Virus record (IMG/VR): IMGVR_UViG_3300007754_000007
Span: 1-64,000 of that record
Length of the DNA stretch: 64,000 bases
Direction: 5' to 3' (one strand)
From: a virus
Lineage: Duplodnaviria; Caudoviricetes
Below, in pieces: positions 20,071 to 32,419 of the stretch (its first letter is position 1; the number at the start of each line of letters is the position of its first letter). The notes beneath the pieces were generated by a model. It had not been told where the DNA came from. It made no database searches and saw only the letters and a list, made by a program, of their open reading frames with translations. The translations under genes and the position numbers were made by a program.

Positions 20071-20955
20071 CTATAGGCCCCGTCGGTATTTCCTTCCCTT
20101 CTGCCAACCTTCTACAAGCCATTTGGGGAGCTCGTGTTCCCGAACTCTCTTGGCCTGTCCAGAAGGGCCACACACCCAAACCCGAGGGGCCATTCCTTTT
20201 CTCCATCCCAAGGCTGTAACCCTCTGGGCCTCCTCCGGAGAGACTTTCCTCTCTTCTTGACCCAAATGGACCCAACAGAATCCCTTGGTCAGAGAAGGCT
20301 TGCCTTGTAGGTGTCTCTTGGCTGCTTTGGATATCTTTAGGCGGCCTTCAGGGGAGATTTTACAAGCGCGTCCGAGTACCCACCCCCGTCTCTGCATTTC
20401 TTCCAGGTCTCCCGGAAGAATGAGAGATTCCCCCTGTTCTGTGTGATTGACATAGATCCTTCCAACAGGATCGGGACGGATTCTTGACAGAAGGGGTGTC
20501 ATTTTCTCTCTGAACCGAGGCCCCCGCCCCCGCTTCCAACCCAGAACCATCCACTCCCCGACCACTTCCTTCCGGACCTTCCGAGGTTTCTCGCCTTCCA
20601 TCCAGACCCAGACCTTTCCGTACTGAGAGTTCTTTGGGCCCTTCTGGGCGTCGTACCAGCCGGGGCTCTCCACACCTCCTTCCATCAAGTTGTAGGTATC
20701 GGCGCGCTTGGCGAAGGCTGCTGTTACGAGCTCCTTCTCCTTCGCATAGGCTTCGGATCGGGTCTCGAAAATGAACAGGACTTCCTTGGTGAACTGGTCT
20801 CGCCCGTGCTTCAAGATGGCGGACTGGAGTACGGAACCGGATCCGAGGTAGGCGTCGTTGGGGTCCCGGGTCTTGTGGACTCCGATGTAAATCTTTCCGT
20901 TGGCGAGACAGGTCGTTCTGTAGACGGTGAAAACGACAGGAGGTAGGGAAGACAT
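20071..20955 (-). CDS. GIY-YIG (Seg-like) homing endonuclease 1
   Basis: [17 protein letters not shown]...YLGSG...E...YNL; four W-x-GW-x-x-GR-type repeats. Confidence 0.92.
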   Translation of the reverse strand: MSSLPPVVFTVYRTTCLANGKIYIGVHKTRDPNDAYLGSGSVLQSAILKHGRDQFTKEVLFIFETRSEAYAKEKELVTAAFAKRADTYNLMEGGVESPGWYDAQKGPKNSQYGKVWVWMEGEKPRKVRKEVVGEWMVLGWKRGRGPRFREKMTPLLSRIRPDPVGRIYVNHTEQGESLILPGDLEEMQRRGWVLGRACKISPEGRLKISKAAKRHLQGKPSLTKGFCWVHLGQEERKVSPEEAQRVTALGWRKGMAPRVWVCGPSGQAKRVREHELPKWLVEGWQKGRKYRRGL

Positions 20956-20988
20956 ACCCTCCCCCGATCGATAGCCAATCTAAAATGG
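20071..20988 (-). mobile_element. GIY-YIG element inserted in the T-loop of tRNA-Asp
   Basis: junction GGGGGTTCG^CCATTTTAGATTGGCTATCG; right boundary uncertain. Confidence 0.7.
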
Positions 20989-21047
20989 CGAACCCCCGGC
21001 CTCCGGAGTGACAGTCCGGTGCTACCTGCCAGCTGAGCTACATCCCC
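20989..21047 (-). pseudogene. tRNA-Asp(GTC) truncated at the T-loop
   Basis: CCGGA-CT-GTC-AC-TCCGG, ends at TTCG; no matching 3' strand found. Confidence 0.85.
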
Positions 21048-21070
21048 TGACGCCTCCGAGGAGGCAAGGG

Positions 21071-21280
21071 TCAACTCTCCAAGTCGGCGATGTGGATTTC
21101 TCCCCCGCTGATCTTGGTGTGTACCCCTTTGGAATTGATGACCACGTCATCGTATCCCACGGAACCTTCGATCGAAACCCACGCACTGCCGCAGCAGCCG
21201 CAGCCTGAGATCTCAGCTCCGTACTTCTTCATGACCTTGGCAATCTCCTCAGAGAACGCCAACCACCTTGCCTTATCCAT
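21071..21280 (-). CDS. hypothetical protein
   Basis: GCGCCGS motif, GGAGG RBS. Confidence 0.65.
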   Translation of the reverse strand: MDKARWLAFSEEIAKVMKKYGAEISGCGCCGSAWVSIEGSVGYDDVVINSKGVHTKISGGEIHIADLES

Positions 21281-21342
21281 GAGAACCTCCTGGTGTCTAC
21301 CGACGACTTCCAGAGGGCTTCGGGGTTCGGCTATGTGAGAAG

Positions 21343-21416
21343 TAGGTGAGACAGGACTCGAACCTGCGACCCCCGACGTGTAAAGACGGTGCTCTCCGCT
21401 ACTGAGCTACTCACCT
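21343..21416 (-). tRNA. tRNA-Val(TAC)
   Basis: CCGTC-TT-TAC-AC-GTCGG. Confidence 0.88.
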
Positions 21417-21422
21417 ATAAGA

Positions 21423-21496
21423 TGGAGGCCACTTCGGAACTCGAATCCGATCCACCCCCATACCACAGGGGCGAGCATCCCATGACTCAGCGGCCT
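21423..21496 (-). tRNA. atypical tRNA-His(GTG)-like gene
   Basis: 8-bp acceptor with A-1:U73, T-arm, CCA, central GTG; irregular D-arm and anticodon arm. Confidence 0.5.
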
Positions 21497-30247: not shown

Positions 30248-30793
30248 ATGCTATGGCCCAGAGAGAGGTCGTGTAGGACGCCGAGACGGTTGCACTCTGG
30301 GTTCCAACGGGACGTGATTCGGTACGTGTGGCCGGTGAAGTTCCCGATCGCCAAAGAGAACCTGGTCCTTGCCAAGGATGTCTCTGCGGGAGACAAGCCT
30401 GCGGTGGGGGACAAGGTCACTGTGGAGATCTTCGGGAAGGACCGCGAAGGAACCGTCAAGAAGATCCACTCCTCCGGCGACATGGCTGACGTGGACTTCG
30501 GGAAGGGCGATGTCTATGGGATCACCTTCTCCCGGATGAAGAGCGCCTCCCAGGATGTCTCCGCTGCCATGGACATGACCGACTGGAAGCCCCACGAGCG
30601 TTGGGACGGTCTTGTTGGGCTCCGCGCGGGTACGGAGATCTACATCGACGGGAAGGTGATCGGGATCGCCGTCGCTGACGGCCTCGCGAAGAAGAGAGGC
30701 CGTCAAATCCAGCTTCGGGTCCAGGACGTCGGAGGCGGCACCAACGAGGTATTCCTGGGTCCCGAAGACATCCGCGCCCTGGCCCGGATGTAG
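30248..30793 (+). CDS. hypothetical protein with small beta-rich (SH3-like) modules; start uncertain
   Basis: VGDKVTVEIFG...GTVKKI...DVDFG. Confidence 0.55.
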   Translation: MLWPRERSCRTPRRLHSGFQRDVIRYVWPVKFPIAKENLVLAKDVSAGDKPAVGDKVTVEIFGKDREGTVKKIHSSGDMADVDFGKGDVYGITFSRMKSASQDVSAAMDMTDWKPHERWDGLVGLRAGTEIYIDGKVIGIAVADGLAKKRGRQIQLRVQDVGGGTNEVFLGPEDIRALARM

Positions 30794-30795
30794 GC

Positions 30796-31086
30796 TCAGC
30801 GAGCCTCGCGGAGAATCTGAAGAGGGCGAGCGTCCGCGCCGACCCCGACGCTCATGGTGCCGTTGTGCATGAACGCGGCCCAGCCGGATTCCTCTCCCTG
30901 GAACAGCATCAGAGGCCCCTGGTTGGTCAGCCTCCACCCCTTGAAGGTGGCTCGCTGATCCTCTCTTCCGTCGTAGATCCAGTACGACTTCCCCGCCTTC
31001 ACATCCTCGGGGCCCATCCCTCGGGCCTCAACAGGCTTCGGTACGGGAAGAAGATTCTCTTCAGCCAGGATTCTACGTAGGGACAT
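30796..31086 (-). CDS. small protein with LRRILAEE leader
   Basis: begins MSLRRILAEENLL; AGGAG RBS. Confidence 0.7.
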   Translation of the reverse strand: MSLRRILAEENLLPVPKPVEARGMGPEDVKAGKSYWIYDGREDQRATFKGWRLTNQGPLMLFQGEESGWAAFMHNGTMSVGVGADARPLQILREAR

Positions 31087-31140
31087 GGGGTACTCCTACT
31101 CGGGAAGGAGGGATACCTCCACTACCGTTCCTGGAGGGCA

Positions 31141-31446
31141 CTATCTCCTACGTTGGGCCTCTCGACGACGCGTCCTGTAGACCTTGGTCTTCCGGGCAGG
31201 ATCCTGCTTGGCAATCCACTGCACGGCCTTGGCATACTCAGGATTGGCTAACAGCCCCTCTACGCTGGCGAGACTGGATCCCTCGGCGGCCAACTCACGG
31301 TTCGAGAAGAACCGGTGAATCGTGGAATGACACATCGCACAGATGTCCACAGTGAGGTTCGGATCCACCTTCCTTGTTCGTAGGTGGTGCTCCGAGATCC
31401 TCCGCTCCGGTACGTCTCTCTTACAGAGCGGACAGTTCTGGGTCAT
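31141..31446 (-). CDS. small HNH endonuclease-like protein
   Basis: CPLC...EHHL...CAMCHSTIH. Confidence 0.75.
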   Translation of the reverse strand: MTQNCPLCKRDVPERRISEHHLRTRKVDPNLTVDICAMCHSTIHRFFSNRELAAEGSSLASVEGLLANPEYAKAVQWIAKQDPARKTKVYRTRRREAQRRR

Positions 31447-31461
31447 CGGATGTACCCGGGA

Positions 31462-32319
31462 TCAAGATTCTTTCCAGGTCTTTCCTCGGACAACGTGATG
31501 GATCGCCACATAGGAGACCTCAAACCGGGCGGCTAAAGACGCCTGTGTTGTCCCTCCCTCTCGATATATTCTCCGAATCTCACGTACCTTTTCCCAGGTG
31601 AGCTTGGCAAGAGGATGATTTTCCCCGGAAGAGGGCTGGCGGGTTTTAGGTGGTCTCCTCCCGAGACTCCATCCCTCTTGGAGCATAGCTTGGACTTCCG
31701 ATTCGAAGATCTTGCGGGCCATCCCTTTTGGAGGATGCATCCAAACCCGGTTCTGTCTCTGTTTACCCCTCCACCCTTGAGCTTCCCATTTCGGGACTTC
31801 TTCTGGAAGAACGTAGAGTGTCTCTGAGCCTTTGGACATCCGAACCTTCCCTTTGATCGGGGAAGGTCTCGGAGGCCCGCACCTTTTCCCACGCCCCCGC
31901 TTCCAACCCAGAACCATCCACTCCCCCACCACTTCCTTCCGGACCTTCCGGGGCTTCTCTCCCCCCATCCAAATCCATACTGTTCCGTGTTGGGAGTTCT
32001 TTTCTCCCTTCTGGCCGTCGTACCAGCCTCCGATTGCCCCACCTTCTCTCAGGTTGTAGGTATCGGCGCGCTTGGCGAAGGCAGCGGTGACGAGCTCCTT
32101 CTCCTTGGCGTATGCCTCGGCTCGAGACTCGAAAATGAACAGGACTTCCTTCTGGAACTGATCTCGCCCGTACTTCTTGACAGCCCGCGAGATCAGATTC
32201 CCTGAGCCCAGGTAACGGTCGTCGGGGTCTCGAGTCTTGTGAACGCCGATGTAAATCTTGCCGTTGGCAAGGCAGGTCGTTTGATAGACGGTGTAGACGG
32301 CAGGAGGTTTGGTAGGCAT
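31462..32319 (-). CDS. GIY-YIG homing endonuclease 4 (three GW repeats, C-terminal HTH)
   Basis: [29 protein letters not shown]...LAARFEVS...KTWK. Confidence 0.92.
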   Translation of the reverse strand: MPTKPPAVYTVYQTTCLANGKIYIGVHKTRDPDDRYLGSGNLISRAVKKYGRDQFQKEVLFIFESRAEAYAKEKELVTAAFAKRADTYNLREGGAIGGWYDGQKGEKNSQHGTVWIWMGGEKPRKVRKEVVGEWMVLGWKRGRGKRCGPPRPSPIKGKVRMSKGSETLYVLPEEVPKWEAQGWRGKQRQNRVWMHPPKGMARKIFESEVQAMLQEGWSLGRRPPKTRQPSSGENHPLAKLTWEKVREIRRIYREGGTTQASLAARFEVSYVAIHHVVRGKTWKES

Positions 32320-32351
32320 GCCCTAAACGGGCGATAGCCAAACCAAAATGG
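31462..32351 (-). mobile_element. GIY-YIG element inserted in the T-loop of tRNA-Leu(TAA)
   Basis: junction GTCAGTTCG^CCATTTTGGTTTGGCTATCG; right boundary uncertain. Confidence 0.7.
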
Positions 32352-32419
32352 CGAACTGACAAACTCACAAGGAGCGACGCATTTTAAGTGCGATGTGTAG
32401 ACCCTTCCACCACGGGGGC
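32352..32419 (-). pseudogene. tRNA-Leu(TAA) truncated at the T-loop
   Basis: CGCA-CT-TAA-AA-TGCG, long variable arm, ends at TTCG. Confidence 0.85.

Follow-up and report, generated by a model that had tools for sequence, protein, structure and literature searches.

The window analyzed here, the first 64,000 nt of the 72,260-nt IMG/VR virus record IMGVR_UViG_3300007754_000007, carries in its tRNA array four free-standing genes, designated E1 to E4, for homing endonucleases of the T4 SegB family, which have a GIY-YIG nuclease domain. In three of them (E1, E2, and E3) a short conserved leader directly adjoins the 5′ part of a tRNA gene, and these 5′ parts, of different isotypes (Asp, Pro, and Leu), share one end point, nucleotide G57 of the T-loop. 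At the Pro site the missing 3′ part of the broken tRNA is located 1 kb downstream, where it is attached to a 5′ part from another tRNA-Pro. We favor, with moderate confidence, a reading in which these SegB-family genes of the array carry a derived T-loop junction that would have a single origin and would have spread, by repair relying on T-arm homology, into non-allelic tRNA genes.

The split tRNAs, leaders, and nuclease genes, together with the tRNA-like RNA that precedes E4, are the following:

20989..21047, minus strand: 5′ part of tRNA-Asp(GTC), positions 1-57, ending in T-loop GTTCG (Rfam 34.1 bits, model 1-55 of 71, 3′ cut)
20956..20988, minus strand: conserved leader of E1, 33 nt (homology with the other copies from 20994)
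20071..20955, minus strand: E1, SegB-like GIY-YIG homing endonuclease gene, 294 aa (PHROG 314, E = 4.8e-33; Pfam GIY-YIG/SegE just under cut-off)
25425..25482, minus strand: 5′ part of tRNA-Pro(GGG) 'A', ending in T-loop GTTCG (26.5 bits in a wide Rfam scan; tRNA hidden Markov model)
25393..25424, minus strand: conserved leader of E2, 32 nt (leader motif)
24487..25392, minus strand: E2, SegB-like GIY-YIG homing endonuclease gene, 301 aa (PHROG 314, E = 1.9e-33; T4 SegB match)
32352..32419, minus strand: 5′ part of tRNA-Leu(UAA) with long variable arm, ending in T-loop GTTCG (Rfam 19.4 bits, E = 0.037, model 1-55 of 71, 3′ cut)
32320..32351, minus strand: conserved leader of E3, 32 nt (leader motif)
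31462..32319, minus strand: E3, SegB-like GIY-YIG homing endonuclease gene, 285 aa, with a C-terminal helix-turn-helix-like tail (PHROG 314, E = 5.5e-32; Pfam GIY-YIG 25.8 bits, over cut-off)
27523..27662, minus strand: tRNA-like RNA that has all four arms (acceptor, D, anticodon with UUG, and T) plus an additional region of about 70 nt, 3′ side intact (cloverleaf fold; no ARAGORN or Rfam call)
27491..27522, minus strand: leader of E4, 32 nt, canonically placed behind an intact 3′ end (motif with 2 mismatches)
26675..27490, minus strand: E4, SegB-like GIY-YIG homing endonuclease gene, 271 aa (PHROG 314, E = 2.2e-39; NUMOD3 match)

An earlier, sequence-only reading of this stretch had reported the three tRNA 5′ parts ending in GTTCG, their leaders of 33, 32, and 32 nt, and a fourth copy starting 32 nt after the 3′ strand of the tRNA-like RNA, and all of its coordinates were confirmed. 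The extra region of the tRNA-like RNA forms two hairpins, and the whole RNA folds at -50.9 kcal/mol (z = -2.46).

The Asp and Leu pieces were scored with Rfam on a search stretch cut at the junction. A tRNA hidden Markov model (HMM; 78 positions) built from 283 phage tRNAs matched the Asp piece over model positions 4-59 (E = 5e-5) and the Pro 'A' piece over positions 5-59 (E = 0.0099). The D and anticodon stems are unbroken in all three stumps of the window. Pairwise DNA homology among the copies starts exactly at the T-loop (20994, 25430, and 32356) and fades in mid-gene, with DNA identities of 77-83%. The junction sequence consists of GGTTCG followed by CCA, CCG, or GCG and a T-run, and it looks like a tRNA 3′ end with its trailer from which positions 58-73 have gone. 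The leader motif occurs four times in the window compared with 0.42 occurrences expected by chance (0 of 100 shuffles reached four). When E4 and a homologous copy on an independent metagenome contig (L086, see below) are included, the spacing from the tRNA part to the ATG is 32 nt in four of five copies and 33 nt in the fifth. A terminator composed of a hairpin and a T-run was considered as a feature of the junction and discarded, being present in only two of four junctions, and a scan for sigma-70 promoters gave 2 matches against 3.4 expected.

All four proteins match PHROG 314, the homing endonuclease family. E2 shares 47% identity with T4 SegB over the 94-aa nuclease domain (BLASTP, E = 5e-24) and contains the SegB C-terminal module, which is repeated in E1 to E3. 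Pfam GIY-YIG/SegE scores range from 19.6 to 27.6 bits, near the cut-offs, with at least one cut-off passed by two of the four proteins. In the alignment the Y, YIG, R, E, and N positions, which we take to be the catalytic residues, are invariant across E1 to E4. Between copies, 72-78 of the first 95 residues are identical and the C-terminal halves diverge; at these values, and at the DNA identities given above, calling the nuclease domains near-identical, as had been done, is too strong. All four reading frames are intact and lie on the minus strand among the tRNAs of the array, co-oriented with them. A tree built from 36 nuclease domains places T4 SegB within the set of relatives and groups the window copies with three metagenome loci in one clade; the PDB, searched by sequence, returned no solved relative.

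Rfam shows no intron across any of the four elements, no intron model matches inside 20071-21047, 24407-25482, or 31462-32419, and each open reading frame (ORF) has its own leader and stop codon. Together with the SegB-family match, these results uphold the earlier view of an intronless, free-standing SegB-like element. Its companion statement that no intron core lies nearby is correct for the elements themselves and not for their surroundings, as the group I intron at 18081-18335 lies 1.7 kb beyond E1, in a different tRNA gene and as no part of the elements. Likewise, the claim that integrases and transposases are absent agrees with the lack of family matches in the 17-18 small neighboring ORFs and is qualified by weak TnsA-like and HNH matches at 27687-28592.

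The Pro copy provides the most direct view of how such a structure could arise. Two further pieces of tRNA lie immediately downstream of E2:

24426..24483, minus strand: second tRNA-Pro(GGG) ('B'), 5′ part, beginning 3 nt past the stop codon of E2 (matches 'A' at 43 of 58 positions)
24407..24425, minus strand: 3′ remainder, positions 58-76 including CCA, belonging to the upstream Pro 'A' (pairing with 'A')

ARAGORN reports a full tRNA-Pro(GGG) at 24407-24483, with an Rfam score (43 bits) that is low for this array. Its last 19 nt comprise the T-loop remainder, the 3′ strand of the T-stem, the 3′ strand of the acceptor stem, and ACCA. This remainder pairs at 12 of 12 positions with stump 'A' (10 Watson-Crick and 2 G-U pairs) compared to 9 of 12 with the attached 'B'. 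When stump 'A' and the remainder were joined in a script, the product adopted a cloverleaf at minimum free energy (-34.3 kcal/mol), while the resident chimera gave no cloverleaf. On the simplest reading, the leader, the nuclease gene, and nucleotides 1-57 of another tRNA-Pro would have entered one tRNA-Pro gene as a single block, at the boundary of positions 57 and 58. As read from this pairing, the Pro copy appears to be direct evidence of insertion, clean at 57/58 as the sequence-only reading had proposed for all three sites; it is the opposite of a simple deletion, the outcome which that reading had set against its own, and argues against it. An origin of the Pro structure by tandem duplication was also rejected, as a second nuclease copy is missing upstream and the remainder matches the stump rather than the 5′ part to which it is attached. 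A 372-kb IMG/VR record contains an intact, unoccupied tRNA-Pro(GGG) that is 88% identical to stump 'A', with a match that stops at the T-loop; this record is not syntenic, is without a close nuclease homologue, and does not represent an empty-site allele. Elsewhere in the array, tRNA-Gln(CUG) (22572-22647, minus strand) has the same T-loop and 3′ strand of the T-stem as the chimeric tRNA-Pro and a mismatched first T-stem pair, and it may be another partial conversion.

The record has a CheckV completeness of 14%, which implies a full genome of several hundred kb, and the window has a GC content of 60%. ARAGORN identified 18 tRNA genes in the window, every one on the minus strand, most of which were also called by Rfam; the intron at 18081-18335 is an additional Rfam call. 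A megablast search of 15 kb against GenBank phages returned a 53-nt tRNA-Met stretch as its sole match, and no close relatives of the source phage were found in the collections searched (IMG/VR, GenBank phages, and GTDB genomes). The source is an uncultured high-GC giant phage, with the four SegB-family genes resident in its tRNA array.

We compared the window copies against approximately 130 related loci, 116 from IMG/VR and metagenomes examined by HMM scan and 14 from genome contigs examined with ARAGORN and by eye. Among the best 80 IMG/VR relatives, tRNAs were present in the fetched locus in 31 and on the same strand as the nuclease gene in 30, and an intact tRNA ended 20-100 nt upstream of the match in 22; this upstream layout was also seen in several metagenome and genome-contig relatives. 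T4 segB itself starts 41 nt after tRNA-Ile and ends 5 nt before tRNA-Arg, a layout matched upstream by E4 and downstream by E2. Judged from these arrangements, the usual position of the family is tens of nucleotides past an intact tRNA gene and just ahead of the next. Homologous leaders follow intact tRNA ends in E4 and in one relative, L020. The HMM scan of the 116 loci found 30 with an upstream tRNA-like match; 24 of these matches reached model position 70 or beyond, 5 stopped at 66-69, and only that of L086 stopped at the T-loop position (59). The GTDB genome contigs yielded 16 related loci, of which 14 were inspected (L129 and L140 were left out). Three of the 14 lie in tRNA arrays, where the nearest upstream tRNA is intact and ends 53-121 nt before the match, and the T-loop junction was found in 0 of 14. 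More distant relatives sit in group I introns, as judged by eye from intron-like upstream sequences.

L086 is a 7.4-kb contig from a different metagenome (GC 0.59) in which a tRNA 5′ part ending in GTTCG is followed by a homologous 32-nt leader and a 238-aa homologue that shares 59-63 of the first 95 residues with the window copies. The anticodon stem of its stump is broken. Because L086 carries the junction, the T-loop junction exists outside this record and its assembly. The spread within one genome that had been proposed earlier finds no support in this second occurrence or in the roughly 20% difference in DNA among the window copies. The metagenome search for junction and GIY-YIG gene that had been suggested at the same time was productive in one form only: the related loci contained L086, while the leader consensus had 0 matches in IMG/VR, and a looser consensus had 0 matches in IMG/VR and 0 in GTDB genomes. 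Two observations on the relatives stand apart from the junction. The L086 nuclease gene is followed by a tRNA (2376-2452, plus strand) with the anticodon UUA according to ARAGORN, which would read the stop codon UAA, and the nuclease ORF ends in TAA. In addition, the leaders of low-GC relatives (L007, L010, L017, L021, and L026-L028) have a shared hairpin followed by TCGAAC and TATAAATA, presumably the consensus late promoter of T4-like phages; this suggests that the cassette in these relatives carries its own late promoter, which is absent from the window leaders.

The properties described for T4 SegB offer a route for insertion at the T-arm. In the parts of PMC2330249 (2008) drawn on here, SegB is reported to recognize a 27-bp site that extends from the T-arm motif GGTTCRANTCC, the recognition core, to CCAR, to cut just after CCAR, and to cut many tRNA genes. 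We infer that this site corresponds approximately to tRNA positions 52-78, and the place of the family right after the tRNA 3′ end fits a cut after CCAR. According to the covered sections of PMC13096335 (2026), SegB homologues are significantly co-located with phage tRNAs; the association is therefore not new, and our own survey agrees with it. The same sections report that breaks made by SegB undergo microhomology repair, needing phage recombination proteins, which leads to rearrangements, so that a repair route of this kind is plausible. The position of the joints at the T-arm is the one observation that bears on a putative site-specific cleavage of tRNA genes by E1 to E4 through the T-arm motif.

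We propose that E1 to E3 and the L086 copy have a derived left end in which the leader became fused directly to G57, E4 having kept the canonical end. The T-loop junction would have arisen once; thereafter, double-strand breaks made by the nucleases in tRNA genes would have been repaired from a donor copy, so that the junction was copied into non-allelic tRNA genes. The only homology available for such repair would be the universally conserved T-arm, six to eleven nucleotides, and the joints would therefore mark the limit of homology and not necessarily the cut. With T-loops as its boundaries, the mobile unit would comprise leader and nuclease gene followed by nucleotides 1-57 of the tRNA that comes next. 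Repair would recreate the same left joint beside each new stump, and the right side would switch back at the next T-loop, as at Pro. Insertion would thus split the target tRNA, leaving a 5′ stump upstream and, at Pro, also a mismatched chimeric tRNA downstream. Since the greater part of the SegB-type recognition site is missing from the stump, an occupied site should be protected against renewed cutting. More tentatively, and somewhat short of an even chance in our judgment, the element may be an isotype-indifferent one for which the T-loop is both part of the target and the only source of homology arms, and which copies itself into any tRNA gene of any phage. Such an element could split tRNA genes without an intron and reshuffle their halves into chimeras.

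Several observations weigh against the repair-mediated spread proposed above. For Asp and Leu the shared junction is the sole sign of insertion, and no Asp or Leu acceptor 3′ strand in a tRNA-like context was found across the 72,260-nt record (14% complete), so that the insertion claimed earlier for these two sites lacks the remainder seen at Pro. By inspection, tRNAs lying farther downstream of E1 and E3 are internally paired. Either the 3′ parts of Asp and Leu were lost in the event or their history was unlike that of Pro. E4, whose left end is canonical, resembles E2 and E3 (74-78 of 95 residues) as much as the junction copies resemble one another, and more closely than L086 does (59-63 of 95); for a single origin to hold, there must have been reversion or gene conversion among the resident copies. 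A cut at G57, as implied by the sequence-only reading, is not borne out, as SegB, in the covered part of PMC2330249, cuts near the tRNA 3′ end after CCAR, about 20 nt further on; homology-limited repair can give joints at G57, and the joint may reflect such a limit. In the IMG/VR relative L023, the tRNA stump ends, by eye, in the anticodon loop and not in the T-loop; therefore, stumps next to these genes are not confined to the T-loop. Orphan partial tRNA matches number 11 in 14 kb of the array of the 372-kb record, which is without these genes, versus 8 in 18 kb here, and fragments as such are thus not specific to these elements. The empty-site alleles that the earlier reading had hoped for in related genomes were looked for and none was found: no syntenic allele free of the homing endonuclease gene came to light, and the only intact homologue of the Pro fragment is in a non-syntenic record. 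Exact fragment stretches used as queries for intact alleles gave 1 match for Pro 'A' (intact, non-syntenic) and 0 each for Pro 'B', Asp, and Leu. Synteny through the neighboring DUF4419 gene gave 1 distant match, without tRNAs and without a nuclease. One further structure was considered as a source of the Asp 3′ part:

20010..20063, minus strand: minihelix resembling an acceptor stem, with ACCA at its end, immediately past the stop codon of E1 (folding energy -22.9 kcal/mol, z = -2.65)

This minihelix is possibly a tRNA remnant, and it was ruled out as the Asp remainder.

The joints could also have been produced by recurrent local deletion, in which each copy, at first in the canonical position after an intact tRNA, would have repeatedly cut that neighboring site and repair with loss of positions 58-73 would have left an immune site; at Pro, the chimera would have been made separately, its 3′ part being gene-converted from the neighbor tRNA before the truncation of the latter. 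The opening of the leaders (CCA, CCG, or GCG and a T-run), which is like an intact tRNA 3′ end with its trailer, and the homology of the L020 and E4 leaders fit such a history, and so does the position of E4, which is no outgroup to the junction-bearing copies. The SegB site, as given in the part of PMC2330249 drawn on here, spans exactly from the T-arm to CCAR, making the lost stretch the body of the recognition site. However, the same end points would be needed four times, in four unrelated tRNAs and with no flanking microhomology to force them; two extra events would be required at Pro where one insertion suffices; and no intermediate was seen among the 30 related loci with an upstream tRNA-like match. 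We therefore consider recurrent deletion unlikely.

A different possibility is that the stumps are kept for a function, as structured mRNA 5′ ends that affect stability or processing or as free decoys for anticodon-directed host nucleases. The intact D and anticodon stems of the three window stumps, whose neighboring genes differ by about 20%, would be expected if this were so, as would the conserved spacing to the start codon (32 nt in four of five copies, 33 nt in the fifth), and phage tRNAs are described as known counter-defense factors in the covered sections of PMC13096335. Nevertheless, the anticodon stem of L086 is broken, the isotypes differ with the T-loop end as the sole common feature, and inspection of the window stumps and L086 revealed no conserved pairing between stump and leader, all of which makes a retained function quite improbable. 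Finally, the record is a metagenome-derived fragment, 14% complete and with repeats, in which tRNA 5′ parts might have been wrongly joined to a repeated leader. Such an artefact is scarcely credible: the stretch common to T-loop and leader falls well below the word length of any assembler, identity among the copies is no higher than 77-83%, the independent contig L086, assembled from a separate data set, carries the same junction, and all four reading frames are intact.

Compared to T4 SegB (PMC2330249), E1 to E4 have a homologous nuclease domain and C-terminal module, are likewise free-standing on the tRNA strand, and start tens of nucleotides past one tRNA to end a few nucleotides before the next; the SegB recognition core, in the part of that paper drawn on here, is the T-arm, where the present junctions lie. 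In contrast, T4 segB is flanked by intact tRNAs, while three of the four copies here abut a tRNA cut at G57, one insertion split a tRNA and made a chimera, and four diverged paralogues with different C-terminal halves occupy one array. The hosts also differ, a high-GC giant phage here and a T-even phage for T4 SegB. The SegB-driven segmental amplification of phage T6, in the sections of PMC13096335 considered, similarly involves breaks in or near tRNA genes, short-homology repair, and new joints. There, however, tandem repeats of a tRNA and a truncated segB are formed with a joint between tRNA 5′ end and segB 3′ end, whereas the window has no tandem repeats, full-length nuclease genes, and joints at the T-loop of non-allelic tRNAs; the same sections, supplements aside, contain no mention of tRNA genes interrupted by an element.

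Group I intron endonucleases of the I-TevI type share with E1 to E4 a GIY-YIG catalytic domain, a modular DNA-binding tail, and an interrupted target gene. Unlike those, E1 to E4 have no intron RNA around them, so the interrupted tRNA cannot be restored by splicing; they do not fall in the intron-encoded class, there being no intron and, for Asp and Leu, no 3′ exon in the 72,260 nt. Islands and prophages carried by integrases also lie in tRNA genes with a partial tRNA copy at one end, but they duplicate the 3′ part and restore the gene, whereas here a 5′ stump is left and the gene is broken or chimeric. No integrase family was found in the ORFs scanned, and the retained stumps are 5′ parts, which separates these elements from integrase-mediated insertions. 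A comparison with archaeal-type split or permuted tRNAs found no matching Asp or Leu acceptor 3′ strand within the 72,260 nt of this 14%-complete record.

Other features of the array and its neighborhood were noted. A tRNA gene at 18016-18358 (minus strand), tRNA-Lys(UUU) by eye, has its anticodon loop split by the group I intron at 18081-18335 (Rfam 57.9 bits), with the 5′ exon ending near 18322 and the 3′ exon starting near 18052; immediately upstream there is an ORF (18303-19076) for a DUF559/Vsr-like endonuclease. Right after this gene is an orphan tRNA 3′ piece with T-arm, acceptor strand, and CCA (17984-18007, minus strand), so that the pair presents two T-arms 33 nt apart. Partial tRNA matches at 27668-27713 (model 33-78) and 23614-23666 (model 26-78), both on the minus strand, cover the 3′ two-thirds only. 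The ORF at 27687-28592 (minus strand), with its HNH endonuclease (PHROG 1271) and weak TnsA-like matches, overlaps tRNA-Arg(ACG) and is probably another free-standing nuclease gene with its true start further in. Directly after E3, a small ORF with Cys/His pairs (31141-31446, minus strand; no family match) may be part of one inserted block together with E3.

Two ways of survival are commonly described for homing endonuclease genes: concealment inside introns or inteins, and harmless residence between genes. In the present array, such a gene, free-standing and from a well-studied family, appears within tRNA genes whose broken halves can still be seen, and a known kind of element can thus land inside tRNA genes and break them. 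T-arm targeting and the cutting of tRNA genes by SegB (2008, PMC2330249), as well as the clustering of SegB homologues with tRNAs (2026, PMC13096335), are already known from the covered parts of these papers. What look new are the junction type, seen only here and in one independent metagenome contig among the roughly 130 related loci, and the direct evidence of insertion at the Pro copy; full-text searches of the literature, supplements aside, turned up no account of a free-standing nuclease gene in a tRNA T-loop or of stumps or chimeras flanking SegB-like genes. An occupied-site stump without most of the recognition sequence also bears on the question, raised in the covered sections of PMC13096335, of how such nucleases spare their own genome. 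If the T-arm is a portable landing site, it would account for the movement of SegB-like genes from one tRNA gene or phage to another, unrelated one and for the stumps and mismatched tRNAs that litter large phage tRNA arrays, and it would show how new tRNA combinations come about. If the isotype-indifferent reading is true, SegB-like genes would directly drive the turnover of phage tRNA arrays by causing the loss of genes, forming chimeric tRNAs, and giving rise to new isoacceptors.

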